Part shown: positions 4,051 through 62,587 of the stretch, one piece after another | Position numbering within the stretch: position 1 is the stretch's first letter | How the letters are laid out: each line of letters begins with the position of its first letter | Assembly (NCBI GenBank): GCA_001602415.1 | Contig: CP012155.1 | Location: forward strand, 2,874,824 to 2,938,823 | DNA length: 64,000 nt | Source of the DNA: Bacteroidetes bacterium UKL13-3 | Lineage (GTDB): Bacteria > Bacteroidota > Bacteroidia > UKL13-3 | Direction: 5' to 3' | Position numbers and translations under genes: made by a program | Notes under the pieces: model-generated | The model's input: only the letters and a program-made list of their open reading frames with translations | What the model was told of the DNA's origin: nothing | Databases searched by the model: none

Positions 4051-7008
4051 TCATTTCTCATTAATAGCATCGTAAATAACATCCTGGATGCGAGTGCGTA
4101 CATTCATTTCTACCAGCTTTTTGTTTTCAGCTGAAGGATGTACCCTGTTGCTCAGAAACACGTATACCAATTTATGTTTCGGATCTACCCAAGCGGATGT
4201 TCCGGTAAAACCTGTATGACCGAATGCTTGAGGAGAAACCAACTTACTCACCGGGGATGCTTTTCTAAAATCTGTTTCGGGCTTATCAAAACCAAGGCCT
4301 CTTCGATTCGCTTTTACCTGTTTTTTGGTAAACATATTAACTGTTGATTCTTTTAATATTCGTTTGCCTCCATAGTCTCCTCCGTTGGCAAGCATTTGCA
4401 TAATTATAGCCACATCATTGGCACTAGCAAATATCCCTGCATGTCCGCTCACTCCACCCAACATGGCTGCGGTTTGGTCATGCACGTAACCATCCAACAG
4501 TTGCCATCTAAAAAAAGTATCATCTTCGGTAGGAACAATCCAATCGGGGTTTATTCCCTTTTGCAATGGATTAAATGTAAGGTTAGCCAAATTAAGCGGG
4601 CTGTAAATATTTTTTTGCAAATACTGCTCAAACGGCATTCCACATTGGTGCTCGATAACCTTTCGCAAAAGCATAAATCCTAAGTCGGAATACACATACT
4701 CTCCTGCTGGTTTTACATCTGATTGAATGATTTGTTTCCATAACATTGGTTCGTAATCTTTATGCATAAAAAGATTTTGCGCAACTTGGATAGTATAGTC
4801 AGAATCTTGTGTTTCGGCATAAATGAGATTGCTAGGCTTGCCATCAAGCAATGTTCGTTTGTAAATCGGAATAAATGGTGTTAAACCCGCTTGATGCAAC
4901 AGCACATCATGAATGGTTAACCGTCCTTTATTACTTCCTCTTAGCTCAGGCAAATAATCGCCCAAAGTTGCTTCCAACTTTATTTTGTGTGCATCAAATA
5001 AATGCATTATTCCTACCGTAGTAGCCAGTATTTTGGTAAGCGATGCCACATCATAGAGATGATAATTTTTTACGGGCATTACACTATCATAAGTGTGAAA
5101 TCCAAATGACTTTTGATAAATAACCTTTCCATCCTTTACTACTAAAACTTGTGCGCCAGGCATCGCTTTTTTCGTTATCGCATCTATAACAATTGTATCT
5201 ATCCATTGAAATGGAAAATGATCGATGTTCATTTCTTCTGGATAGATATACTCCATCCGGTCGAGTGATTCGGTAAATTTTCCCATACCCAAAGGAAATG
5301 TTGTATTTACTGTTACTGGGAGTTTGCCTTTAGCACCTATTGCGCCATACAAAACTTGTGCAGCAAGTTGATTGTATTGTTCTAAATCTTCATAAGATAA
5401 AATAATATTGCGTGCGGTTTTAAACTGTTCAAGTATGTATGGATTACCATTGCACACCAATATTACCTTCTTATCCAACGCCAAAACTTTATTCACAAAG
5501 TCAATTTGAAGTGGGGAGAGTCCAAGTTTTTTGGCAACAAACCTACTAGTGTTATGCAAGCTCAACACTACTAAGTTGTATTGTTTTAAGGTAGTAAAAA
5601 GTGTGTCCCATGATGCTGGGGTATCGGCTTTATCAATGCTAAAGTAATCAGCTTTAACATAGTTCATACTCATTTCTTGAAAAGCTGTTAATTGGTTGGA
5701 TCCAACAGCTACGATTGCCTGTTTGTATAATTCAGGATTAGCGATCGGAATAATATTATCATCGTTTTTTACAACAACAATGGCTTGTTTAATTATTTTT
5801 TTGATAGATAAATACGTGTTGCAACAATTTAAGTCCTCCGTTAAACTGTTCAAATTAATAGGTTGATAGTTATTTAGACCTGCCCAATATTTAGCCATCA
5901 ATATCTTTTTACAGCTTTTTTCAAGTTGTGACCGAGGGATGATGCTATCGTTTAAATATTGTTTAATCATGCTAATAGATGCCGAAACATCTTCCACAAA
6001 TTCCATTAAATCATTACCGGCAGCAAATGCTTTTGCAGTAATTTCTCCAGGTTTGTAATAATCCGTTACACCTTTCATATTTAATGCATCGGTAACCACA
6101 ATACCTTCGAAGCCCATTTCATCTTTGAGTAGATTGGTAACAATGGTTTTAGATAATGATGAAGGTGTATTTGCTGTTGAATCCAGAGCAGGAACATTAA
6201 GGTGCGCAGTCATCACACACATTACATCATTTTTAATCAGCTCCCTAAATGGATACAATTCAAGAGAATCTAAGCGTTTGCGATCGCCCTTCACAACTGG
6301 CAAGCTAAAATGCGAATCGGTTTCAGTATCTCCATGCCCTGGGAAATGTTTGGCACAAGCCATCACATGTTGGTTTTGCATTCCCTTAGCATATTGCGCA
6401 CCTAGCTTGGCCACCCAATATTTATTTTCACCAAAGGATCGGTCGTTTATTACCGGATTTCTAGGATTGTTATTTACATCAACATCAGGGGCAAAATTTA
6501 CATGAATGCCCATTCGCCTACACTGATTTCCAACAGCAATTCCCATCTGGTATGCTGCATCTTCATTCTGCGCTCCACCTAATACCATCTGTCGCGGAAA
6601 TGTAAGCACACTATCCAAACGCATTCCAATACCCCACTCTCCATCAATTCCAATTAACAGTGGAACCTTGGTTTGCGATTGAAAATAATTGGTTAACGCG
6701 GCTTGTTTGGTTGGATTGCCTTTGAAAAAAATAAGTCCGCCAACCTTTTGCTCGCGCACAGCACATTCCACTTCCTTAATATGGGTAGAATCTCTGTTGG
6801 AAAAAGCGGCAATCATAATGAGTTGAGCAATGCGCTCATCTTCCGAAAGCGTTTCATAAACTGAATCAACCCAATTGTTTGATTTTCGCCAATTTATTGC
6901 ATCCGACTGTGCAAGAGCATTAAAGCTGATACAAGCAAATGATATGAGAATATAAATAAACTTAAGCTGCTTTCTTTCCATGAACTGTATTTGCAAAAAT
7001 ACGCTCAT
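4051..7008 (-). CDS. glycoside hydrolase family 3 (NagZ-like beta-N-acetylhexosaminidase) fused to a serine beta-lactamase-fold domain, secreted
   Basis: 985 aa. The N-terminal half carries a GH3 motif (KVPLLIGIDGEWGIGMRLD, FPGHGDT). The C-terminal ~400 aa has an S-x-x-K serine hydrolase motif (ASLTKILATTVG) typical of class C beta-lactamase/PBP-like esterases. A signal peptide follows the internal Met (MERKQLKFIYILISFAC), so 6981 is an alternative start. Confidence 0.8.
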   Translation of the reverse strand: MSVFLQIQFMERKQLKFIYILISFACISFNALAQSDAINWRKSNNWVDSVYETLSEDERIAQLIMIAAFSNRDSTHIKEVECAVREQKVGGLIFFKGNPTKQAALTNYFQSQTKVPLLIGIDGEWGIGMRLDSVLTFPRQMVLGGAQNEDAAYQMGIAVGNQCRRMGIHVNFAPDVDVNNNPRNPVINDRSFGENKYWVAKLGAQYAKGMQNQHVMACAKHFPGHGDTETDSHFSLPVVKGDRKRLDSLELYPFRELIKNDVMCVMTAHLNVPALDSTANTPSSLSKTIVTNLLKDEMGFEGIVVTDALNMKGVTDYYKPGEITAKAFAAGNDLMEFVEDVSASISMIKQYLNDSIIPRSQLEKSCKKILMAKYWAGLNNYQPINLNSLTEDLNCCNTYLSIKKIIKQAIVVVKNDDNIIPIANPELYKQAIVAVGSNQLTAFQEMSMNYVKADYFSIDKADTPASWDTLFTTLKQYNLVVLSLHNTSRFVAKKLGLSPLQIDFVNKVLALDKKVILVCNGNPYILEQFKTARNIILSYEDLEQYNQLAAQVLYGAIGAKGKLPVTVNTTFPLGMGKFTESLDRMEYIYPEEMNIDHFPFQWIDTIVIDAITKKAMPGAQVLVVKDGKVIYQKSFGFHTYDSVMPVKNYHLYDVASLTKILATTVGIMHLFDAHKIKLEATLGDYLPELRGSNKGRLTIHDVLLHQAGLTPFIPIYKRTLLDGKPSNLIYAETQDSDYTIQVAQNLFMHKDYEPMLWKQIIQSDVKPAGEYVYSDLGFMLLRKVIEHQCGMPFEQYLQKNIYSPLNLANLTFNPLQKGINPDWIVPTEDDTFFRWQLLDGYVHDQTAAMLGGVSGHAGIFASANDVAIIMQMLANGGDYGGKRILKESTVNMFTKKQVKANRRGLGFDKPETDFRKASPVSKLVSPQAFGHTGFTGTSAWVDPKHKLVYVFLSNRVHPSAENKKLVEMNVRTRIQDVIYDAINEK

Positions 7009-39095: not shown

Positions 39096-39314
39096 TCACG
39101 TCTCGAGAATCATTGTCCCATCAGTATCGTTAGTCGAATCTCGATGATGATCTAAGTACTTTTGTACCATATCATCGGTTATGTTACCTGTACTCCATGC
39201 TCCGTAACCTGAGGCCCAAAAGTGACGACCCCAGTAACGTTTCTCTATCCAAGGATACTCCTGTTGTAACTTACGTGATGTATGACCTTTCAAGCGCTTT
39301 ACCAAATCAATCAC
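39096..39314 (-). pseudogene. IS200/IS605-family Y1 transposase (TnpA) C-terminal fragment
   Basis: 72 aa: VKRLKGHTSRKLQQEYPWIEKRYWGRHFWASGYGAWSTGNITDDMVQKYLDHH matches the C-terminal half of IS200 TnpA, including the catalytic-Tyr region. The N-terminal HuH-containing half is absent from every frame. Confidence 0.7.
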
Positions 39315-51508: not shown

Positions 51509-52879
51509 TTACTCTGTTAATTTAATAATTCTTTTTAAGTTGACTGCAAAAATTGCCAGTGCACCCTGCATTTGCATATTACTAATGCCATAGGATATTG
51601 CTCTATCGTATCCGTGTATGTTTTTTAACTCACTATTTTTTGCTTCAATTTTATAACGATGCTTTGATTTTTCTTTATAATAATCGGTTTCTTGAAAGAC
51701 TGTTTGTTCTTGATGTAGGTCTGATTTAATTGTTAACGAATAGGTTTTTGTTTTTGCTCCTTCTTTATAACAACCCTCTTTTAAAGGGCATGTTTTACAT
51801 TTGTCTGTATCAAAGTAGTATGTTACTGCTTGGTTTTTTCCAATATTTTTTGTGCCTTGACGAGCCTTTTTTAATGCCATATGACCAGCAGGGCAAACAA
51901 ACATATCTGCATCTTTATTGTAATCAAATTTATCTTCATCCTTTCTTGTGCCTTGTGTGATTGAGGGATTTAGCCTTGCTACTATTTTAATATTTTGCTC
52001 TGTTGTAATTTTAAGATTTTCTTTTCCTGAATAGGCGGTATCGCCTATTATGGTATCCACATCAATTCCATTTTCTTGACTCATTTGTAAAAGTTTTGTT
52101 AACTCTGGCCCATCTCCTTTTTCACCCGATGTTACTACTGCTGCTGTAATAATGCGCTCTTCGGTCATGGCTATATGTGTTTTGTATCCAAAGAATGAGC
52201 TATCAGCTGATTTGTGCCCAATTCTTGCATCAGTATCTTTTGATAGGATGAAATTTTCTTGCGTATCTTCTACCGTTTCTTTTAGTAAATTGAGTTTTTC
52301 TTTTACACCAGGTATTGAACTAATAGTTGGTTCATTTTCTATTCGTTGCTCTAACTCTTTGCAATATGCTAACTCCTTTTCCAAATCATTATCAATGTTC
52401 TTTTGTGGCATATTTTCTTTCCATTCCTCATCAAACAAATACACCGCTTTCCTGAGTAACTTAGAGCGTTCACGTAATACTTCTATTGCTGAAAATGGAT
52501 TTGATCTTGATAGCGTATGTGTGGCATCTACTATAATTGACTTTGAACGAATGATGCCTTTTTCAACTGCTATACTGACTGTTTTGTTTATTAATAAATC
52601 TAACAAGTCGGTGTCTTTTAAACATAGTTTTCTAAACTTGGTCAATGAACTAGAATTTATTACTTCCTCTTCTGGTGTCATTTCTAAAAAGTATTTAAAT
52701 GACATATCGTATCGTGAACGCTCAACTACATCAGATATTGTATAAATTGTTTTCAAAAGTAAATACTTGAACATGCGAACTGGACTTTCCGCCATTCGGC
52801 CATTATTCATGCAATATTTATTTACTAGCTCCTCGTATACAAAGGAAAAGTCTACTAATTCATTAATTTTTCTAAGCAA
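51509..52879 (-). mobile_element. IS1182/IS5-like DDE transposase gene, 5'-truncated (N-terminal ~30 codons replaced by a stop)
   Basis: DUF772/InsH-N motif VRMFKYLLLKTIYTISDVVERSRYDMSFKYFLEM. The frame upstream reads *DLIVPKHNLLRKINELVD, matching the canonical IS1182 N-terminus (DDLIPEDH..R.VNEVID) but cut by TAA. Only a TTG start is available. Confidence 0.7.
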
Positions 52880-53030: not shown

Positions 53031-53109
53031 AACATTTGTTAATCAAATGACTTTTTCAGTGGCCTCCTGATATGGCCGGGCATTTTTTTATAGTCTAAGA
53101 TGTTTTCTC

Positions 53110-53529
53110 TTATGCTTCTTCGGCTGTTTCTTCCTCTTCTTCTGGCACAATTCCTTCCATCAAATTGCGGATTTCTTGCAGTTCTTCGCGGTTGTATTTG
53201 TTGCTGTAATCAGCAAACAAATCCATTAAATAATCCAAGTTTGCTTTTCCGTCATCATCTTGCAAATACAAGAATGTATAGCCACCAGCATTTTCTTCAA
53301 TGTTCTCGTAGGCCAAACGAATCATGCGCACATAACCCGGCTCATTCAAATTTGCTTTTACATATTCACGCAACTCTTTTAGCTGTTCTACAACTTTAGC
53401 ACCAACACCTTCAGTAGCCAACGTCTTTTTAATTTTATCAATTATCGGTTTCATATATTTATATCTGTCGGCTGCGAAACTACTGTTTTTGTCGATTAAT
53501 GAAAATACATTTGTTTGAAAATTCATCAT
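53110..53529 (-). CDS. hypothetical protein with acidic C-terminal tail
   Basis: 139 aa, no recognised motif. C-terminus EEEEETAEEA. Its start region overlaps the divergent DUF486 gene, so the true start is probably the internal Met (MKPIID). Confidence 0.4.
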   Translation of the reverse strand: MMNFQTNVFSLIDKNSSFAADRYKYMKPIIDKIKKTLATEGVGAKVVEQLKELREYVKANLNEPGYVRMIRLAYENIEENAGGYTFLYLQDDDGKANLDYLMDLFADYSNKYNREELQEIRNLMEGIVPEEEEETAEEA

Positions 53530-53910
53530 TTTACCATGGCTAAAGGAATCTATACCATTGTTTTACTGCTTGTTTCCAACCTTTTCATGACTTTTGCGTG
53601 GTACGGACACCTGCAGTTTCAAAAGATATATTGGCTCAAAAACACAGGATTAATTGGCAATATCGCCATCAGTTGGGGTATTGCTTTGTTCGAATATGTA
53701 TTTCAGGTTCCGGCAAATCGTATTGGGCATATTGAGCATGGCGGACCGTTTAGTATGTTTGAATTGAAAACCATTCAGGAAGCCATCTCCATTTCGGTAT
53801 TTGTGCTGGTAAACATCTATGTGTTTAAGGAAGGAAACCTGCAATGGAACCACATTCTAGGCTTTGCACTTATTTTGCTAGCCGTATTTGTTCTTTTTAA
53901 GAAGTGGTAA
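53515..53910 (+). CDS. DMT-superfamily small membrane protein (DUF486-like)
   Basis: 131 aa, 4 predicted TM helices, EamA-like half-transporter pattern. Start possibly the internal Met at 53536. Confidence 0.5.
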   Translation: MKIHHFTMAKGIYTIVLLLVSNLFMTFAWYGHLQFQKIYWLKNTGLIGNIAISWGIALFEYVFQVPANRIGHIEHGGPFSMFELKTIQEAISISVFVLVNIYVFKEGNLQWNHILGFALILLAVFVLFKKW

Positions 53911-53932
53911 AATTTTATAGCTTTGTGTACGC

Positions 53933-54235
53933 ATGGAAAAGTTAGTGAAACCTATATTCAATAAGCGCATCTTCTGGGATGTGACTATTGAAACATTGGA
54001 TATTGATGCCAAGGCTAACTTTGTTATTGAACGGGTATTTGAGCGTGGCGATGTGGATGATATCAGGCAGTGTAGAAGGTATTACGGGGATGCTAAAGTG
54101 AGAGAAGCATTACTCAATGCAAAATATTTACCCCTGCATACAATTTATTTGGCAAGTGCTGTTGTTGACGAACCCTTAGAAGCATTCAGATGTTACAAAC
54201 TCAGACAGTTGAACCCGGGACTTTATCCCTACTAA
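53933..54235 (+). CDS. small conserved protein upstream-overlapping an AbiEii-type nucleotidyltransferase (candidate antitoxin-like partner)
   Basis: 100 aa: ...RIFWDVTIETLDIDAKANFVIERVFERGDVDDIRQCRRYYG.... Recognised as a recurring ~100-aa partner ORF of AbiEii/DUF1814 genes in Bacteroidetes. The family name is not certain. 46-nt overlap with the next gene. Confidence 0.4.
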   Translation: MEKLVKPIFNKRIFWDVTIETLDIDAKANFVIERVFERGDVDDIRQCRRYYGDAKVREALLNAKYLPLHTIYLASAVVDEPLEAFRCYKLRQLNPGLYPY

Positions 54236-54815
54236 AAACATTAATGTACGTTCCTGTTCTAAAACAATCGTATCTGGTTGGAGGAACGGCACTTTCATTG
54301 TTATATGGACATCGTATTTCCATTGATCTTGATTTGTTTTATCATGATGATTTGGACAAAACAGCCATTATTCAAAGCCTCACAAACTTGTTCAAGATCG
54401 ATTTTGACTATCGAGGAAATCCCAATTCTTTGGGTATCTTTTGCAATATACGTAATGAAAAGTTGACATTATAAAGTACCCTCATCCAATCATCCATCCA
54501 ACCCAACTTATTGATGGGATAAGAATGTATCATACCGATGATATTGTGGCTATGAAAATGAATGCACTATTAGGCAGAGCAAAAAAGAAGGATTTTTGGG
54601 ACGTAGCCGAATTATTGAAGCATTATTCTATTGCTAAAATGGTGGAACTTCATAAGAAAAAGTATCCAAGCCAGATGCTCCTTATTTCAGTGCCGCAAGC
54701 TTTGATTTATTTCAATGAAGCTGAAGAAAGCGAAGATCCCATCAGCCTTAACGGACAAACTTGGGAAAGCGTTAAGAAAACAATTCGGGCTGCAGTGAGG
54801 GATTATTTAAGTTGA
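54190..54815 (+). pseudogene. nucleotidyltransferase AbiEii/AbiGii toxin family (DUF1814) gene split by a frameshift near 54455-54465
   Basis: Piece 1 in frame 1 carries the NTase motif LVGGTALSLLYGHRISIDLDLF and ends ...NIRNEKLTL*. Frame 3 is open from 54459 as KVDIIKYPHPIIHPTQLIDGIRMYHTDDIVAMKMNALLGRAKKKDFWDVAELL, the conserved AbiEii C-terminal pattern. A 1-nt indel at the AAAA run 54457-54460 would fuse them into a ~208-aa protein. Confidence 0.65.
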
Positions 54816-54865
54816 TACAGATCCAAATGATTGAACCAAAAAGTGTATTCGGACCTGTATGCCCT

Positions 54866-55840
54866 CTACCACCAACCTCTGAAATTATAACTCACAACTT
54901 TAGGTTGATTGTTACCATAAGCCACACCAATATCACGTGCAGCATTGATAAGTGCTTTAGACTCTTCTTCATCGGCTTGTTGTTGCTTCAATTTTAGGTC
55001 CCACTCACGTTTATCCAATTCTTTTACTCGTTTGGCAATCTTTTCATACAATTGTTTCACATCAGTATAACAAGTTGATTGAGGATTAATATTCGCTAAA
55101 ATCTGCCCTGCATCATTAGCCGCATTTAAATCCTGATTAACAGACCAAATACTACTTGCTTTACTCAGTTCAACTTTGCACTCTTGATCTATTTTATACT
55201 TGTAAATTATTGTTATTTCTGGATTAACCTTTTTAAAACATTCAACACAAGCATCCGGAACCGCAGCCAATTTGGATATTGCTGCATCATATTCATTTCT
55301 TTTAGCAAGCTCTCTTGATTCTTTAATCAAAGCATCACACTTGTTATTATAATATTCCACAATTTTAGCTTTACCCTTATTCACAAACGGCTGGTATTGT
55401 GCATCATTGGGCTTAATTGATTTTAAAGCAGACAAGTAGGCTTTTGTTTCATTTTCACCAACACCTTTAACAGTGGTGGTGTAGTTTGAAAACTTAGTTC
55501 CATCAATACCATCTCCAATGACCATTGATATTTCAAGAGTATACGCTTGCATAACTGGAGTTGTTGGCGTTATGTCTTTTGAAATTACAAAAACAGTTGC
55601 TGCTAAAACAAATCTAGTTTGTATAGCATTACCTGAAACTCCAGACGAGGTGGCTATTTGATTCAACTTGCTTTCTAATAAACTCTTTGCGGATTGTGGT
55701 AATCCCTCATTGGGTTCTACTACAGCAGTTGCTAGGGAAATTCGGCCTAAATCTTTAGATGCCAATTTTTCACCTTGAGCAAAGGTGCTCAATCGAAAAA
55801 TAAGCATAGTTCCTAATACTATAAAATGATATGTTCTCAT
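54866..55840 (-). CDS. exported hypothetical protein (operon gene 4 of 4)
   Basis: 324 aa, signal peptide (cleavage ~FAQ|GE). Several Cys in the C-terminal half. No recognised catalytic motif. Confidence 0.45.
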   Translation of the reverse strand: MRTYHFIVLGTMLIFRLSTFAQGEKLASKDLGRISLATAVVEPNEGLPQSAKSLLESKLNQIATSSGVSGNAIQTRFVLAATVFVISKDITPTTPVMQAYTLEISMVIGDGIDGTKFSNYTTTVKGVGENETKAYLSALKSIKPNDAQYQPFVNKGKAKIVEYYNNKCDALIKESRELAKRNEYDAAISKLAAVPDACVECFKKVNPEITIIYKYKIDQECKVELSKASSIWSVNQDLNAANDAGQILANINPQSTCYTDVKQLYEKIAKRVKELDKREWDLKLKQQQADEEESKALINAARDIGVAYGNNQPKVVSYNFRGWW

Positions 55841-55853
55841 ATACTTTTTAGTT

Positions 55854-56807
55854 TTATTTTTCTCCTATTACTATAGTTACCTGACCAAGCCCCTTCATCA
55901 TCAGTTTCGATTCAACTTGATAAGTATCCTTAAGATGTTTTTGTAGTCCTTTTCCCCAACCTCTTGCATCCAGAGCCTTACCATTTGAATCAATCATCGG
56001 AATACGAACTTGTTCAAAAAGCATCATATTCTCTGTTGCATCACTTGTGTTAAATCTTCCTTGTACAGTATTTTCTGAAACCCATTTCTCAATTTGGGAG
56101 CCCAGCTCCGCTCCTCCATATTCCTTCTCTAAATCTCCATCAAATGAATCCCACTTCTTAATTCTTAGTACGATCTCGCGTCCATTTTTAAACCAGTCGT
56201 CAAAACCGGCTTGTAGAAGTGAATTGAAATTGTCAATGTGAGATAAAACAGCCTCTTCCAACAATACCGGAAGTTCGGCTGTAAAAGAAGGTACTCCTGT
56301 ACCGGATGCTCCTGCAATTTGTTTGTCGGTATAAGCATCTAAACCTTGTAAATTAAAAGTAATAGACTTTTTAGGCCCTGTCTGATTCACCGTCCATGTC
56401 AGCTGCATCCAGATATCAGCCTTTGCTGTTTTTTTCAGTTTATCAACAGGTGATTCGCTGATGGTAGATCCCGCCTTGCTCGTCATCATTGCTGATTCAG
56501 CGGCTTCACTCTCCAACGTTTTGATTGATGACTCTAAGTTTTTCAAGGGGAATCCCCTTGCTGCCATCAAATCATTTATTTTACTTATTACCAATAACAA
56601 GTCGGTACTTTCTTGAACTGCTCGCTTATAATCGGATACTTTTATTTTAGTTCCTTGGTTATCATATTCAAGTACATAACCATTTTTTATGCACCAAGCA
56701 TCGCTCGGCACAACCATAATAGTTGGCTTTTTTGCTTGACCCATAACAACTTCTACTAAAGAAGTTACTATAGCTAATGTTATTACTATTCGTTTATAGA
56801 TTCTCAT
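55854..56807 (-). CDS. exported hypothetical protein (operon gene 3 of 4)
   Basis: 317 aa, N-terminal signal/anchor, conserved-looking TIMVVPSDAWC segment. 13-bp gap to the next gene. Confidence 0.45.
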   Translation of the reverse strand: MRIYKRIVITLAIVTSLVEVVMGQAKKPTIMVVPSDAWCIKNGYVLEYDNQGTKIKVSDYKRAVQESTDLLLVISKINDLMAARGFPLKNLESSIKTLESEAAESAMMTSKAGSTISESPVDKLKKTAKADIWMQLTWTVNQTGPKKSITFNLQGLDAYTDKQIAGASGTGVPSFTAELPVLLEEAVLSHIDNFNSLLQAGFDDWFKNGREIVLRIKKWDSFDGDLEKEYGGAELGSQIEKWVSENTVQGRFNTSDATENMMLFEQVRIPMIDSNGKALDARGWGKGLQKHLKDTYQVESKLMMKGLGQVTIVIGEK

Positions 56808-56867
56808 ACGTATGTTAATTTTTAATGGTGAAACACTTGGTATAATTACTCTCTATTTCCTTTGGGC

Positions 56868-57380
56868 TCAGAACCCGGAACTTAGAGACTTAATTATTCT
56901 TTCATCTTCAAGAAACTTTCTCAATTGAGTAACATTTACAGAGACCAATACACCTATCTTATATTCTCTACCTATTCGTAATCTATCCTCTGCAGCCACT
57001 GAACCATCATTAGATAAGTTTACATATTTCATGTATTTACCACCATCCATAAAAAACTCGTTAAAAAAACTTGACTTCTCTTTTTCAATAGATGAATTTG
57101 TGGCAAGGGGATTTTGACCCGGTATGCCTTGTTTTCCAGCAAAACCCTTAAATATAATTCCGTGAACGGCATTCTTTTTTGCTTGCTCAATTGCAACTTC
57201 CGGTTTGGCAGAGTAGGACCAAACCTTAATCAAATAAGTTCCCTGAATTCCGGTATTTACAGCCTCAATTTCATATCGCCAATTGTCCGTATCTTTATTT
57301 ACCTGTTTTTTAGATTGACAAGACGAAGCGTTAACTCCCAATAAAATCAAGAGTATTAAGTTTATTAGTATTGTTCTCAT
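56868..57380 (-). CDS. hypothetical lipoprotein (operon gene 2 of 4)
   Basis: 170 aa, lipoprotein-type signal (GVNASSC). Confidence 0.45.
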   Translation of the reverse strand: MRTILINLILLILLGVNASSCQSKKQVNKDTDNWRYEIEAVNTGIQGTYLIKVWSYSAKPEVAIEQAKKNAVHGIIFKGFAGKQGIPGQNPLATNSSIEKEKSSFFNEFFMDGGKYMKYVNLSNDGSVAAEDRLRIGREYKIGVLVSVNVTQLRKFLEDERIIKSLSSGF

Positions 57381-57388
57381 TACTAAGT

Positions 57389-58654
57389 TTATTTTAATTG
57401 TCGAATAAGCATCCCAGAATAAAACTTCTTACCTCCTTTGAAAGTTGTACGATCAATTACCGGCTTTGTTGTATCCGTCTCAGTCGAAGATTCTTCTCCG
57501 GCATTAAATCTATTATCCCAAAGCAACTTTTTATCTACTTTGATAGTTCCTTTAGATTCGTACTTTGTTAACCCGGTCTTAGGGTCAATAACCTGTTCCA
57601 AAACTTCAAATTTCTCACCGCCTTCTAATCCCTCTTTCATTCCTATTTTTGCAGTTATTGGATAACCTGTATACAAGGGAACTTTCGGTTTAAATACATC
57701 ATATTTCTTTTGAAGTTTAGCATAAACAGCGTCAACATTTCGAACTGTTGACAATGCGATAATTTGACTTTCTGTACGTTTTTCTTTTAGAGAAAAGGTA
57801 ACGAGACTAGTTGCCTTCTCTTGCCCTACGAATTCAAGACTAAATAAATTGGTTTTATCAAATGCTTCTTTTTTAGAGGGGCTTACAGATGATTTATCGA
57901 ACCACAAATCATTATAAAATATGGCAGCAATTGAGTCATTCCATTTTAACTTGTACAGATACGAAGTAGTCCACACAGAATATCCTTCTTTTGTTTTTTC
58001 ATACAGTGCATCTGCTGATTTGATTGCAACTTGTTGCATCATGGGATTAGGCATTTGATTTGCAGCTAGTTTAGATGCGTCTCTGATTCCTGCTGCAAAT
58101 ACCTCATTGCTTAAAAATGTAACCTTGGAAAATACTACAAACGTATTTCCTATCAACTCCTCCCCTGCATCGGCTAGGGAAGAAGCTCCTCTTGCACTGC
58201 CTTTAGCGATATTTGCTTCCATGTCGGAAGCATTATAAGCCCCTCGTTCTCCAATTAACTGCATATCAAATGATCCATCCACTTTTCTATTGAACCATTT
58301 TGCAACCAATTTATTGGCGATCTTTTGGTCCGCTATAAATCTATCAATGGCGGGTTGTGTTTCCGATATTTCCTTGTCAGCATCGGCAGCACTCTTTGCT
58401 GTTGCTCCGTAATTTTTAGGATTAAACGATTTTATTCCAATATTGTGATCATTATATTTATCAGGAAAGGGTGAAGTGTTGTATGCTTGTATTACCACTT
58501 CTTTATTCGGGAAATTATCTGCCTCCAATAAAATTGTGTGTAATGAACTCCTACGATACTTGATATCCGGAGTTTTGTCTGCGTTTTGCGCATACGTTGT
58601 TACAAAAGCAGACATAAGCGTTGCTGCTAATGATGAGTAAATGAATTTGTTCAT
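57389..58654 (-). CDS. exported hypothetical protein (operon gene 1 of 4)
   Basis: 421 aa, signal peptide (YAQ|NA). 8-bp gap to the next gene. Confidence 0.45.
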   Translation of the reverse strand: MNKFIYSSLAATLMSAFVTTYAQNADKTPDIKYRRSSLHTILLEADNFPNKEVVIQAYNTSPFPDKYNDHNIGIKSFNPKNYGATAKSAADADKEISETQPAIDRFIADQKIANKLVAKWFNRKVDGSFDMQLIGERGAYNASDMEANIAKGSARGASSLADAGEELIGNTFVVFSKVTFLSNEVFAAGIRDASKLAANQMPNPMMQQVAIKSADALYEKTKEGYSVWTTSYLYKLKWNDSIAAIFYNDLWFDKSSVSPSKKEAFDKTNLFSLEFVGQEKATSLVTFSLKEKRTESQIIALSTVRNVDAVYAKLQKKYDVFKPKVPLYTGYPITAKIGMKEGLEGGEKFEVLEQVIDPKTGLTKYESKGTIKVDKKLLWDNRFNAGEESSTETDTTKPVIDRTTFKGGKKFYSGMLIRQLK

Positions 58655-58811
58655 ATTCTTTGGTTTGATCCTACTCTTCAGGCTTTTCGGTTAACGCCTC
58701 TGCATGAAAATACCCCACGCAGAAAGGGTATCGCATCTGCGACATAAGTTCTCAAATAAATGGTTTGCTTGTTAAATAAGTGATGGGCAGAGGTTGTGAG
58801 CATTTAGGGAT

Positions 58812-58827
58812 TATTTGTCTACAAATA
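58812..58827. promoter_or_regulatory. palindromic operator-like site TATTTGT-ct-ACAAATA in divergent intergenic region
   Basis: 7-bp perfect inverted arms with a 2-bp spacer, in the 247-bp region between the 4-gene exported-protein operon and the divergent XRE regulator. Confidence 0.35.
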
Positions 58828-58925
58828 AAAAAGAAAATTTACGTAATTATCAAATTAATAATTTTATTATTACTATTAATATACTAATTATCTGAATGTA
58901 AGTGTTTTATTTACAACCTTGCGAC

Positions 58926-59291
58926 ATGCATTTAGGCTTACGTATTAAGATTGCCCGCATCAGCAAAGGATTGACTCAGGAACAGTTGGCGGAAAAAATA
59001 AATAAGACAAGACCACTGATTAGTAGCATTGAGCAAACGGGAAAAGTAAACTACTATACCCTTAAGAAAATATGTGAGGTATTGGATTTAGATCTTGACG
59101 AGGTAAATCACGAAGCCAATGATCCTCAAACAGAGTATGGATTCCCTAAAAATACGAAACAAACCGATCGGGTAAAACAACTGGAGAAAGAAGCGCAACA
59201 ACTCCACCTGCTCACACAGTCGCAAGCAGATCTTATTGCAGTGCTAAAAGAAAAAATAGACCTGTTGGAAAAGAAAATCAAGAAAAAATAA
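58926..59291 (+). CDS. XRE-family HTH transcriptional regulator with C-terminal coiled coil
   Basis: LGLRIKIARISKGLTQEQLAEKINKTRPLISSIEQTGK is an HTH_XRE. The C-terminus is Leu/Lys-rich heptads. Start taken at the internal ATG 58926 (ORF track 58902). Confidence 0.7.
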   Translation: MHLGLRIKIARISKGLTQEQLAEKINKTRPLISSIEQTGKVNYYTLKKICEVLDLDLDEVNHEANDPQTEYGFPKNTKQTDRVKQLEKEAQQLHLLTQSQADLIAVLKEKIDLLEKKIKKK

Positions 59292-59867
59292 CTATGAATT
59301 CCACCGTTGGGTAACCCTGAGTGTATATTGAATAAAATCATCCAACCCTGCATCATATTGCGCATTTCCGAGTGAATTTCCCGACTCATCTAATACCTCT
59401 TTGGTAAAATGCGATTCAAAAATTTTGGCGGATACAAACGAATTTAAATCGGTAAAACTGATAATTTTGTTGAGAATCGTATGAAGGTGCAATGCAGGTG
59501 CTTTACCTCCTTTTCCGGTTGATACTCCAACTGTTGCAAATACTTTTTCTTCAAACAAATGCTTAAACGTGCGATCACCTAAACGGTGCAAGAAGTTTAA
59601 AATTTCGGGTGTGGTACTCCAGTTGTATTCGGGCGTAATTAAGATAATAGCCTGTGCCTCCTTCATGGCATGGGCAAGTTGTTGTTGAAAAGACGTAAAA
59701 GCAGATTCAATAACAGGTCCTTGATTGATTAATGGAATATCATAATGCTGGAAATCTACTAGGGATGTTGTGTGTCCTAATGTGTTTAGGCGTAACTGAA
59801 TCGCCTTTCCTACGCGTATGGTATTATTGTTGGCTCTTGCCGAGCCTGATAATATAGCGATGTTCAT
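59292..59867 (-). CDS. NAD(P)H-dependent FMN reductase-like flavodoxin-fold oxidoreductase
   Basis: MNIAILSGSARANNNT..., the N-terminal nucleotide-binding pattern of the NADPH-dependent FMN reductase family. Confidence 0.7.
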   Translation of the reverse strand: MNIAILSGSARANNNTIRVGKAIQLRLNTLGHTTSLVDFQHYDIPLINQGPVIESAFTSFQQQLAHAMKEAQAIILITPEYNWSTTPEILNFLHRLGDRTFKHLFEEKVFATVGVSTGKGGKAPALHLHTILNKIISFTDLNSFVSAKIFESHFTKEVLDESGNSLGNAQYDAGLDDFIQYTLRVTQRWNS

Positions 59868-59907
59868 CTAATCGGTAATTAAGTTGGTTGGTTGATCTAT
59901 TGATTCG

Positions 59908-60810
59908 TTAACCTAACCGATATTTAGAAACATATTGATAGAGGTTAAAGTTTTCATCTTTTAAACACTCTTTAATTTCCTCCAACAACTGCGGAAACGA
60001 AACATCTTTTGTGCGCATGTTCTTAATTAGGGTAAGGGCTTTTTCAGCAACCAAAACTGCCTTGCGCGAGCTGATTTGACTTAACTTTCCATGGTTTTCA
60101 ATAGCGGTTAATAGCTCGTTTAGTCCTTCGTTTTTGGTTGCAACCGTTCGAACAACAGGCGTTTCCCAATCGCTTGTGGCGTGGCTATGAGCAAGCATGG
60201 TAAGGTTTTTATAGAACGTATTTGCTCCGTCTCTATCGGCTTTGTTTAACACATAAATATCCGCAATTTCCATCACACCACTTTTAATGGTTTGAATATC
60301 ATCACCTGCTTCGGGTACCAATGCCAAAATAGTAGTGTCGGCCAACGATGCAATTTCCACCTCACTTTGTCCAACTCCCACCGTTTCAATAATAATATAA
60401 TCAAACCAAGCAGCTTTTAATACATCTGTAACCTCTAGTATTTTAGGAGATAATCCACCTAAACTTCCCCTGCTGGCCATGCTGCGTATAAATACATCGG
60501 GGTGCAAAAAGTGATCGATCATGCGCACCCTATCGCCCATCAATGCCCCGCGGTTAAACGGTGAACTAGGATCAACAGCAACAATAGCCAAACTTTTTCC
60601 GGCCAATAACATTTGTTGAGTAAGTGCACTAATTAAGGTGCTTTTTCCGGCACCTGGAGGACCTGTAATACCAATAACGGGAGTGTGTTTATTGGGCAAC
60701 GATTGCAATAACGTTTCATATCCTTCGGTTTCATTTTCAACGGTGCTAATTGCCCTTGCCAAAGCTCGTTTATCATGTTGCGCTAATTGTTGTAAAAGGA
60801 TATGTGCCAA
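59908..60810 (-). CDS. meaB: methylmalonyl-CoA mutase-associated GTPase MeaB/ArgK
   Basis: P-loop GITGPPGAGKSTLI and GDRVRM motifs characteristic of MeaB. Confidence 0.85.
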   Translation of the reverse strand: MAHILLQQLAQHDKRALARAISTVENETEGYETLLQSLPNKHTPVIGITGPPGAGKSTLISALTQQMLLAGKSLAIVAVDPSSPFNRGALMGDRVRMIDHFLHPDVFIRSMASRGSLGGLSPKILEVTDVLKAAWFDYIIIETVGVGQSEVEIASLADTTILALVPEAGDDIQTIKSGVMEIADIYVLNKADRDGANTFYKNLTMLAHSHATSDWETPVVRTVATKNEGLNELLTAIENHGKLSQISSRKAVLVAEKALTLIKNMRTKDVSFPQLLEEIKECLKDENFNLYQYVSKYRLG

Positions 60811-60865
60811 TGGATGGATTGTTATGAGTGCAAGTTTACGAATATTTATGAGGGGAACGTGTGTG

Positions 60866-61972
60866 CTAATATGTCCTTTTTTTCCACTGCATTTTTACCG
60901 GTAGTATGAAAAAAATCTGTGTGCTAATAGCAATGATATTAGCGTATACATCATACAGTAATACGAGTAAAAAATGTTGGCGCATGCTTAGTTTGTATTG
61001 CAGCCACAGCACAAACAGTGATTGTATCCCCCATTTAATACCGTACAGTTGCACAGCTAGCAAGGGTTGGTAAAAAAACAATATGATAATAGCTGGAAGG
61101 AAAGATCCTAATATTCCAAATAAAATCCACCAATACAGAGGAAGTTCTTTGGCACCCATTAACCAACGTTTGCGCTGATGCATAAGTTGTACAAAAGAGG
61201 TAACCGGGCCCGAAATATTTAAACTGTTGCGGGTGATAATATTTTTTGTTTTCCAACCTTTTTTACGCACTTCCCGATAGAGTTTGTAATCTTCCGTTAC
61301 CGAAAAATCCAACCCTTCATATCCTCCCACACTTGTGTATGCCTCTTTACTTATAGCCATATTGTTTCCAACCGCAGTGCAGCCCATTCCAATATTATCA
61401 AAACCTTTGAGCAAACCCATAAAATACAACCAATCTAACCCCATTAATTGCGCAACAATTGGTTTATCGTGCACCATTGTTAATCCGGAAACAATGGCAA
61501 GTTTATCATCCGTAAAATGTGAAACCAACTCCTTTGCCCACTGTTGGTTTACAATAATGTCGGCATCGGTTATGGCATAAATAGTTCCGGTAGCTTTTTG
61601 TGCAAGATGTGCCAACACATTTGCTTTTCCCCTTGCATTGCCCAGTGTATGGGTAATATTCAAGAGTTTAAATTGTGGCTTATCTTTTATGAATGCTGTA
61701 ACCAAAGCCGCTGTTGCGTCCTCCGACTGGTCGTTTCCAACCAAAATTTGTATGTTATTTTTGGGGTAATTAAGTTCGTTGAGTGCTTGCAAACATTGAA
61801 TAATGTGCTGCTCTTCATTGCGTGCAGCAATCAGTACCGATAATAAAGGAAGTTCTGCATCAGCCATTTGTTTTGTGTCATCTTCTTTGAAGGCAGCTAC
61901 TCCCCAAAACAACACAACTTGAATAACAATATATGCAGCAACAATTCCTAAACAAATAAACGAAAGCATCAT
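60866..61972 (-). CDS. family 2 glycosyltransferase with C-terminal TM helices (NodC/IcaA/PgaC-like processive GT2)
   Basis: LSVLIAARNEEQHI (DxD-region start), ITDADII, QRKRWLMG (the QxxRW motif of processive beta-glycosyltransferases). Several C-terminal TM segments. Confidence 0.75.
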   Translation of the reverse strand: MMLSFICLGIVAAYIVIQVVLFWGVAAFKEDDTKQMADAELPLLSVLIAARNEEQHIIQCLQALNELNYPKNNIQILVGNDQSEDATAALVTAFIKDKPQFKLLNITHTLGNARGKANVLAHLAQKATGTIYAITDADIIVNQQWAKELVSHFTDDKLAIVSGLTMVHDKPIVAQLMGLDWLYFMGLLKGFDNIGMGCTAVGNNMAISKEAYTSVGGYEGLDFSVTEDYKLYREVRKKGWKTKNIITRNSLNISGPVTSFVQLMHQRKRWLMGAKELPLYWWILFGILGSFLPAIIILFFYQPLLAVQLYGIKWGIQSLFVLWLQYKLSMRQHFLLVLLYDVYANIIAISTQIFFILPVKMQWKKRTY

Positions 61973-62587
61973 CTATAATAATTTATTAAACGTAAATCCT
62001 TTGTCCGAAAGTTGTTTAAGCACTTCGGGCAATATTTGTTGTAATTGCCTTTTAGCCTTTTCACTATCATGAAACACAATGATTGAACCGTTTTGTGCTG
62101 CATTTACGGTTGCCTGTATAGCTTGCTCAATGTTAATGTTCGAATCATAATCGCGGGTTAGAATATCCCACATAATGATGCTATATCCTTGTCGTTTAAG
62201 CTTGCCAATTTGCAGTGGACTTATTCTTCCGTATGGCGGGCGAAACAATTTGCTCTTTACCAAAGTGGCGCAGCGCGAAACGTTATCGTAATAGCGTTGG
62301 TTGTCTGTTGTCCAACCTTTAAGGTGATTGTATGTGTGGTTGCCCGTTGCATGTCCCTGGTCGATAATAGAATGATAGGTTCCAGGAAATTTGGTAACGT
62401 TTTCGCCCACACAAAAAAAAGTAGCTTTGGCGTTATGTTGTTTTAAGATGTTTAGCACCCAATGGGTAATTTCGGGGTGCGGACCATCATCAAAGGTTAA
62501 AAACACAACCTTATCACTTGTTTGAACCTTCCAAGTAAGGGATGGCACTAATAAAGGAAGAAAAGATGGTAATGTGTGTTTAAACAT
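61973..62587 (-). CDS. polysaccharide deacetylase (CE4, NodB-like)
   Basis: VFLTFDDGPHPEITHWVLNILKQHNAKATFFCVGEN...HTYNH are the NodB-homology motifs. No gap to the GT2 gene. Confidence 0.8.
   Translation of the reverse strand: MFKHTLPSFLPLLVPSLTWKVQTSDKVVFLTFDDGPHPEITHWVLNILKQHNAKATFFCVGENVTKFPGTYHSIIDQGHATGNHTYNHLKGWTTDNQRYYDNVSRCATLVKSKLFRPPYGRISPLQIGKLKRQGYSIIMWDILTRDYDSNINIEQAIQATVNAAQNGSIIVFHDSEKAKRQLQQILPEVLKQLSDKGFTFNKLL

Follow-up and report, generated by a model that had tools for sequence, protein, structure and literature searches.

A fixed single-base frameshift in the nucleotidyltransferase gene of a DUF6922/DUF1814 module from Bacteroidetes bacterium UKL13-3

Results

Organization of the locus

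We analyzed a stretch of 64,000 nucleotides (nt), hereafter the window, from Bacteroidetes bacterium UKL13-3, a freshwater member of the Bacteroidota (GenBank assembly GCA_001602415.1, contig CP012155.1, positions 2,874,824 to 2,938,823 of the forward strand; coordinates below count from its first letter). At 53933-54815 the window holds a two-gene module in which a nucleotidyltransferase (NTase) gene of the AbiEii/DUF1814 type is broken by a frameshift and its small overlapping partner, a DUF6922 gene, is intact. The frameshift is real, single, and fixed in a natural population. When the open reading frames (ORFs) of 53400-55200 were listed, three were found on the plus strand across the module: the partner of 100 amino acids (aa; 53933..54235), a 94-aa ORF in frame 1 (54190..54474), and a 96-aa ORF in frame 3 (54525..54815). 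The 94-aa product contains LVGGTALSL...SIDLDLF and ends in ...NEKLTL. Frame 3 is open from 54459, with a TGA at 54456-58 just before it, up to a stop at 54813-15, and reads KVDIIKYPHP...IDGIRMYHTDDIVAMKMNALLGRAKKKDFWDV... These results bear out the original prediction, made from the letters of the window, in its account of a frame-1 GGTALSL...DLDLF motif followed by a stop at 54474, of a frame 3 open from 54459, and of a 46-nt overlap with the 100-aa gene (Table 1). That prediction had also put the frame switch at a run of four A residues. The lesion does adjoin the run, which occupies 54458-54461 and not 54457-54460 as had been given, and the lost base was most likely a T.

Table 1. Features of the DUF6922/NTase module in the window
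Feature	Position	Strand	Basis
DUF6922 gene, 100-aa protein, intact partner, putative antitoxin/regulator of the NTase	53933..54235	+	PF21956 match
DUF6922 3' end / NTase 5' end, 46-nt out-of-frame overlap, dual coding	54190..54235	+	ORF list
NTase codons 1-89, frame 1, motifs I and II	54190..54456	+	PF08843 E=3e-8 for this half alone
NTase motif I, V30-G31-G32	54277-54285	+	Translation, conserved columns
NTase motif II, R42 and D46-L-D48	54313-15 and 54325-33	+	Translation, conserved columns
Lesion site: G54457-A54458, remainder of codon 90; AAAA run 54458-54461	54457..54461	+	Alignment with intact orthologues L020/L021/L023/L024
Premature TAA, frame 1	54472..54474	+	ORF list, translation
NTase codons 91-208 and stop, frame 3	54459..54815	+	PF08843 E=5e-8 for this half alone
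NTase invariant K91 / D93	54459-61 / 54465-67	+	Invariant columns
NTase motif III, K123..R130	54555-54578	+	Translation, invariant columns
NTase motif IV, K134-D135..D138	54588-54602	+	Translation, invariant columns
First start codon in NTase frame 3, ATG, M113	54525	+	ORF list
Predicted Bacteroidota-type -7 promoter box TAGCTTTG = TAnnTTTG	53918..53925	+	Read from sequence; inference

The predicted promoter box lies 7 nt (53926-53932) ahead of the DUF6922 ATG, and a TAnnTTTG box likewise stands 15-16 nt ahead of the ATG in the orthologous loci L020 and L023. Counting against this promoter prediction, a box of the TAnnTTTG type occurs within 120 nt upstream at only 27 of 56 family loci.

The frameshift in a natural population

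Exact-sequence look-ups with the DUF6922 partner and the 94-aa fragment led to 19 contigs that contain this locus, from 14 samples. Ten of the samples are ENA assemblies, one of them with a freshwater label, three are JGI metagenomes, and the last is a Logan assembly; one further sample is represented by matching gene calls alone. All 19 loci align to 53933-54815 without a gap at 99.5-100% identity, and each carries the junction AATGAAAAGTTGAC or a variant with a single nucleotide polymorphism upstream of it. Across 7.2 kb, the contig from SRR6487939 shows 100% identity to the window. In every metagenome assembly, the gene callers split the NTase into two pieces. Because the identical frameshift is present in 14 independent assemblies, an error of assembly or in the homopolymer can in practice be dismissed. 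The original prediction had named two observations, either of which would overturn it. One was reads with a different length of the A run and hence an intact gene, but the independent assemblies agree with the run length of the UKL13-3 assembly; the other was a fused protein without a PF08843 match, which is contradicted by the match given below.

We found no intact allele among 5.8 billion protein clusters, where the closest full-length relative of the NTase is only 75% identical. A scan of metagenome contigs for an intact junction, with a pattern that allowed 8-11 nt across the lesion and that does recognize the window and the 19 loci, gave 0 matches, a result that is uninformative because that collection lacks this population. 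A phase-variable homopolymer switch was considered and rejected, given that the run is just four A residues long and invariant in the 19 loci from 14 samples.

Ancestral state and the lost base

The two closest NTases, P0002 (75% aa identity) and P0004 (71%), are found in the metagenome-assembled genomes GCA_044353855.1 and GCA_947470365.1. Both belong to intact modules, with DUF6922 and NTase genes for 100 and 208 aa that overlap by 46 nt, as in the window. Their neighborhoods are syntenic with it as well: downstream follow FMN_red, MeaB, a GT2 glycosyltransferase, and a polysaccharide deacetylase, the counterparts of the genes at 59292..62587 of the window, and the upstream junction, formed by the last DMT_6 codons (...FKKW*), is common to the window and the orthologues. 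When the whole module was aligned at the nucleotide level with the orthologues, there was exactly one gap, of 1 nt, in the window at 54457/54458, in agreement with the predicted single inactivating lesion. At this gap the window has AATG-AAAAGTTGAC, L020 has GATGTAAAGGTAGAC, and L023 has CAACATAAAAGTTGAT.

Frame 1 agrees with the family through N89 and frame 3 agrees from K91, so that the lesion is confined to codon 90. For family columns, lengths, and conservation counts we used the best 120 of 3,385 NTase relatives, which had been found by searching the 5.8 billion protein clusters. Among these 120 homologues, column 90 is Val in 74, Ile in 45, Thr in 1, and Glu in 0. GTA is the sole repair by a single insertion that yields a residue allowed in the family, and loss of its T would turn AAT GTA AAA GTT into AATGAAAAGTT. 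Because column 90 holds Val, Ile, or Thr in 120 of 120 homologues and never Glu, we consider the T of a GTA Val codon, rather than an A of the run, the most likely base to have been lost. Slippage from five A residues to four is less likely as the mutation, since it demands an ancestral Glu90, which is absent from the 120 homologues, in a buried beta-strand position. The lesion thus adjoins the A run yet is probably not a homopolymer event. Since the gene is otherwise undamaged, with 68 of 70 conserved columns kept, the inactivation is recent compared with the divergence from the sister lineages; it is older than the coalescence of the sampled population.

The DMT_6 (DUF486) gene upstream of the module is complete in the window (53515..53910). 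In the orthologous locus L023, only its last 26 codons are retained (approximately 5641-5718; tblastn E=7e-6), which indicates gene loss in a sister lineage at the same junction.

Family assignment of the NTase

Insertion of one base at the junction gives a protein of 208 aa, the predicted length of the fused product. In support of the predicted assignment to AbiEii/DUF1814, residues 17-164 of this repaired protein give one unbroken match to PF08843 (AbiEii; E=1.4e-17, 64.9 bits with the cut-off at 22.5), and each half of the protein passes on its own (34.1 and 33.7 bits, E=3e-8 and 5e-8). Eighteen PADLOC AbiEii models match it as well, the best at 9e-13, and a search of NCBIfam returned no family for either the NTase or its DUF6922 partner. 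Exactly 208 aa is the modal length of the relatives (108 of 120). Of the 70 columns conserved at ≥90%, the repaired NTase retains 68, and the other two hold conservative changes (I127L and D177E) that are found in further family members too.

Dy et al. (2014) defined four DUF1814 motifs, I (hG[GS]), II (R...DhD), III (KLxAaxxR-like), and IV (+DxxD), and mutation of any one of them abolishes AbiEii toxicity (PMC3985639). All four are present in the repaired NTase and invariant in its family: V30-G31-G32; R42 with D46-L-D48; K123-MNALLG-R130, whose motif III pattern reads K123..A126..R130; and K134-D135-FW-D138. For the fold, a model of the orthologue P0002 (predicted local distance difference test score, pLDDT, of 92.5) stood in for the repaired window protein, to which it is 75% identical. 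The solved structures that it matched in Foldseek were JHP933 (E=9e-8), MenT1 (1e-5), MenT4 (6e-5), and TglT (1e-4), and JHP933 is also the sole PDB relative detectable by sequence profile (E=1e-4). By profile score, motifs, and fold, the window NTase is a member of PF08843/DUF1814; its ORF is not intact.

Consequence of the lesion for the enzyme

The break leaves motifs I and II upstream and puts motifs III and IV, together with the invariant K91 and D93, downstream. In the P0002 model, residue 90 forms the turn between core strands 82-87 and 90-96. In our reading, the K91/D93 region supplies the third carboxylate strand of the pol-beta fold, and D93 is the third catalytic Asp. There is no ATG, GTG, or TTG in frame 3 before 54525 (M113), so that K91 and D93 are translatable only after a frameshift. 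Loss of function is the expected outcome, and we infer that no activity is left: the NTase gene is expected to be a fixed loss-of-function pseudogene.

The DUF6922 partner and its module family

The partner gene is intact, as had been predicted, and a Pfam search names its family DUF6922 (PF21956; E=7e-21). It has 2,360 homologues, nearly all of about 100 aa. The partner had no AbiEi or PADLOC match, its AlphaFold2 model was all-alpha and matched no solved structure, no DNA-binding domain was detected in it, and a literature search returned no mention of DUF6922. The original prediction of a type IV toxin-antitoxin (TA) system with an upstream cognate gene therefore holds in that the partner does lie upstream, but the partner is not of the AbiEi type and belongs to a different, uncharacterized family. 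Type IV TA, or AbiE, is therefore a label for the probable mode of action of the module and not for its membership.

A scan of one genome per GTDB species yielded at least 569 NTase relatives, and the best 80 of these were kept for counts of family loci. Every named taxon among the 80 is a Bacteroidota lineage. A DUF6922 ORF stands directly upstream of the NTase in 79 of them, and the exception begins at a contig edge. The overlap measures exactly 46 nt in 76 of 78 family loci across Bacteroidota, and conservation at third-codon positions is 1.2-1.5 bits within it but 0.45-0.57 bits in the flanks, where one frame only is coding. This conservation of third positions means that both frames are constrained and that the NTase start at 54190 is real. 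Overlaps in TA operons are typically 1-4 nt, beside which 46 nt is unusual.

No close family members were found in plasmid and viral/phage collections, only relatives at 28-40% identity. Specifically, ten viral contigs from IMG/VR (L106-L115) encode distant NTase relatives at 32-40% identity, and the gene upstream is in each case an Xre-type helix-turn-helix (HTH) domain, HTH_3, fused to a C-terminal DUF6922, ending 1-14 nt before the NTase start (10/10 by hidden Markov model [HMM], 7/7 by Pfam). On the Microscilla plasmid pSD15 (L116), the gene upstream of the NTase is annotated as an HTH protein. The usual design of an antitoxin is a DNA-binding domain followed by a toxin-binding domain. Because the Xre-HTH-DUF6922 fusions follow this design, DUF6922 is most plausibly the NTase-neutralizing module, which would here occur without a DNA-binding domain.

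Within the sampled population, the partner start codon is changed from ATG to ATA (53935) in three samples (L011, L016, and L017), where translation would need to begin from the GTG of codon 5, and one locus (L019) has V56E (54099) at a nearly invariant column. These changes may be the first signs of partner decay. Either the partner is kept by selection, for example, for protection against related incoming modules, or it has just not yet decayed.

Genomic surroundings

Two haplotypes segregate in the population over a 3.5-kb segment at about 56,040-59,540 of the window. They are 77-93% identical, and the flanks (53,040-56,040 and 59,540-60,040) are about 100% identical. The segment spans the 5' part of a DUF6175 gene, genes for 170-aa and 421-aa proteins, and an HTH gene; in the 421-aa gene alone, 53 nonsynonymous and 127 synonymous sites segregate. 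The segment may represent a cassette that has recombined or is diversifying. Furthermore, 6 of 14 strains have a 1,338-bp insertion at 54824|54825, 9 nt past the NTase stop (L003, 1899-3236), which encodes proteins of 40, 101 (MpPF26), and 97 aa; no terminal repeats were seen, and no copy was found elsewhere in the window.

About 1 kb upstream of the module lies an intact insertion sequence (IS) transposase gene on the minus strand (51509..52879; 456 aa; DDE_Tnp_1_6, DDE_Tnp_1, DUF772). The short-read contigs of the locus all end just downstream of it, which implies that the element is multicopy, and gene calling in sample ERZ21989587 splits the transposase into 311 + 87 aa. Elsewhere in the window, a 72-aa ORF on the minus strand (39096..39314; …GHTSRKLQQEYPWIEKRYWGRHFWASGYGAWSTG…) resembles, as judged by eye, the C-terminal remnant of an IS200/IS605-type TnpA. 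The module had originally been described as the second toxin-like module of the window. A first one was not found: ten small ORFs that were tested proved to be housekeeping genes (S9, L13, RRF, PyrH, NUDIX, and others), and the gaps at 38.7-39.7 kb and 62.6-64 kb held nothing TA-like, although there was no dedicated pursuit of such a module.

Discussion

Taken together, our results are best explained by a fixed NTase pseudogene in a chromosomal DUF6922/DUF1814 TA-like module that is widespread in Bacteroidota, a reading to which we give a probability of roughly 0.78. According to this explanation, codon 90 has lost a base, in all likelihood the T of GTA, so that translation stops six codons on and leaves a 94-aa stub. 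The stub keeps motifs I and II and is without D93, motifs III and IV, and half of the beta-sheet, and the downstream part can start solely at M113 and hence without K91 and D93. The DUF6922 partner gene and its predicted promoter have survived the loss of the toxin gene. By analogy with MenT and AbiEii, an intact NTase would act as a bacteriostatic toxin, arresting growth through the addition of nucleotides to the 3' ends of tRNA. The DUF6922 protein, translated along with it, would hold it in check as its neutralizer, and the 46-nt overlap may couple the stoichiometry of the two. The intact module thus probably encodes a tRNA-modifying bacteriostatic NTase restrained by DUF6922. Antitoxins of MenT, which are unrelated to one another, and AbiEi have been reported to bind the toxin and to induce auto-phosphorylation of an active-site Ser or Thr (PMC11375011; bioRxiv 10.64898/2026.01.19.700257), the phosphoacceptors being T39 in MenT1 and S78 in MenT3 (PMC11375011). 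In the window NTase, an invariant T33 (54286-54288) directly follows G31-G32 of motif I and, judging from its position, could be the counterpart of these residues.

Several observations weigh against this explanation. The NTase gene shows no second lesion, so that rare frameshifting might still allow it some function. Tests of whether selection has relaxed since the break were underpowered or just mildly positive. Specifically, within the population 4-5 nonsynonymous and 4 synonymous sites segregate in the NTase and 2 and 1 in the partner, too few to show relaxed or maintained selection. The window accounts for 0.38 of the branch length in the NTase tree, compared with 0.29 in that of the partner and 0.22-0.24 in those of FMN_red and MeaB, which suggests a mild acceleration that is not significant. 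The terms toxin and antitoxin, as applied to this 208-aa subfamily and to DUF6922, derive from distant homologues. Finally, mean column identity is higher in the partner than in the NTase (83% versus 68%), and the module is syntenic across related species, both of which are atypical of an addiction module.

An argument can be made that the pair is not a TA or defense system at all, but a chromosomal NTase with a conserved accessory subunit that serves a cellular function, such as the modification of RNA or small molecules, in which case the frameshift would mark the loss of a dispensable function. The greater conservation of the partner and the synteny of the module in three related lineages fit such a role, as do the absence of close members from plasmid and viral collections, where relatives reach only 28-40% identity, the lack of an AbiEi or PADLOC match for the partner, and a 46-nt dual-coding overlap unlike the 1-4 nt typical of TA systems (4 nt in AbiE; PMC3985639). 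Yet the fold and motifs match DUF1814 toxins specifically, with JHP933, MenT1, MenT4, and TglT on top, and the distant relatives on viral contigs and plasmids have an Xre-HTH-DUF6922 partner in the classic antitoxin layout. The module also sits at the edge of a variable gene island, and loss of the enzyme alone with retention of the partner is the pattern expected of a toxin. We therefore regard a purely cellular role as unlikely, though worth keeping in view. As for an error at a short homopolymer that hides an intact gene, the lesion does adjoin a run of four A residues, and long-read errors typically take the form of single-base indels. We nevertheless give this next to no credence, since 14 independent assemblies from differing projects and assemblers (MEGAHIT k141 contigs, JGI, Logan) have the identical sequence without a gap, the protein collection holds no intact allele, the missing base is most likely a T and not an A, and a run of four is too short to be error-prone in short-read data.

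The frameshift could also be compensated during translation. The lesion creates G_AAA_AG, and a -1 slip of tRNA-Lys on A_AAG (54459-54462) would restore the ancestral frame exactly (...N-E-K-V-D-I...), so that a full-length V90E NTase, a trickle of active enzyme, would result from tuned or recoded expression. An ORF that is otherwise pristine, without additional stops and with its conserved columns kept at 68 of 70, would suit such an arrangement, as would an allele fixed in all samples, but a recent pseudogene would look equally pristine. Moreover, U_GAA_AAG is not a canonical X_XXY_YYZ heptamer: just the A-site tetramer A_AAG fits, and the P-site tRNA-Glu would need to re-pair on UGA. The RNA downstream (54463-54560, 98 nt) has a minimum free energy of -12.1 kcal/mol (z=+0.8), and 158 of 200 shuffled sequences fold as well. 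The orthologues, the 120 homologues, and the 80 loci are all single ORFs without a frameshift, and the recoded product would carry Glu where 120 of 120 homologues have Val, Ile, or Thr. We consider such recoding quite improbable. A split enzyme is another matter: the 94-aa N-terminal and 96-aa C-terminal (ATG 54525) fragments might both be made and either act together or take on a new role, for example, as a catalytically dead decoy that still binds DUF6922. Both pieces are called by gene callers in every assembly, and both are open and conserved within the population. But residues 90-112, with the invariant K91 and D93 and two core strands, are in neither piece, any single-motif mutation ends AbiEii toxicity (PMC3985639), no other split member occurs among the 80 loci and 120 proteins, and we saw no evidence of a start signal for the C-terminal fragment; we hold this reading to be highly improbable.

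A pseudogene in a TA-like module thus remains our preferred reading, and it can be extended to the partner. We tentatively propose, at somewhat less than even odds, that minimal MenT/AbiEii-like NTases throughout Bacteroidota have in DUF6922 a class of partner not described before, either antitoxin or regulator, which is coupled to them by a conserved 46-nt overlap and occurs either as a stand-alone protein or fused to Xre-HTH on mobile elements. The window would then represent a toxin-dead, partner-retained state in which the partner possibly serves as an anti-addiction or immunity gene. A more radical variant, in which leakiness of the fixed frameshift keeps the toxin at a very low dose, is less likely.

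The lesion itself is ordinary. Loss of a single base that kills a toxin-like gene is routine genome decay and matters chiefly for correct annotation: the NTase locus belongs annotated as a pseudogene, and neither as an assembly error nor as two small AbiEii genes. The superfamily is known, and the module family, which is unstudied, is of moderate interest as an entry point. More generally, the locus exposes a very common but unstudied Bacteroidota module of a minimal DUF1814 NTase and DUF6922. The Xre-HTH-DUF6922 fusions give a testable hypothesis, namely, that DUF6922 is the NTase-neutralizing domain, and for testing it this locus offers a ready-made comparison between a naturally dead toxin allele and intact orthologues.

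Comparison with known systems

Among characterized systems, the MenAT pairs of Mycobacterium tuberculosis (MenT1/MenA1, MenT3/MenA3, and MenT4/MenA4) share with our module the DUF1814 fold (Foldseek matches 8an5 and 8an4 for MenT1, 6y56 for MenT4, and 6j7p for TglT/MenT3, E 1e-5 to 1e-4), a short protein partner directly upstream, and a similar minimal size, with MenT1 chains of 176-195 residues. MenA antitoxins are mutually unrelated (PMC10435456, PMC11375011). The window NTase is only 12-16% identical to these toxins, its DUF6922 partner is unrelated to MenA1 or MenA3, and the module differs further in its 46-nt dual-coding overlap, its Bacteroidota host, and its frameshifted NTase. The pair probably works like a MenAT system.

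AbiE of Streptococcus agalactiae and Lactococcus likewise has a PF08843 protein with motifs I-IV in a bicistronic arrangement of overlapping genes, with the partner upstream on the same strand (PMC3985639). In contrast, AbiEii is about 300 aa long and the window NTase 208 aa, and AbiEi is a COG5340 winged-HTH autorepressor with a 4-nt overlap, whereas the window partner is a 100-aa all-alpha DUF6922 protein with an overlap of 46 nt. Because there is no AbiEi, the pair is not AbiE (type IV, recently proposed as type VII TA) in the strict sense.

The closest solved structure, both by profile (E=1e-4) and by fold (E=9e-8, template modeling score [TM] 0.60), is JHP933 (PDB 4o8s / 4ok0), a DUF1814 NTase from a plasticity zone of Helicobacter pylori. 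It is similar in size (232 aa versus 208 aa) and only 18-19% identical to the window NTase, and no DUF6922 partner is known for it. The pairs of Xre-HTH-DUF6922 and AbiEii-like proteins on viral contigs and on Microscilla pSD15 have both domain families in the same order as the window, DUF6922 and then the NTase. They differ from it in that their NTases are 32-40% identical to that of the window, their partner has an N-terminal HTH_3, their genes lie 1-14 nt apart, and they are carried on mobile elements.

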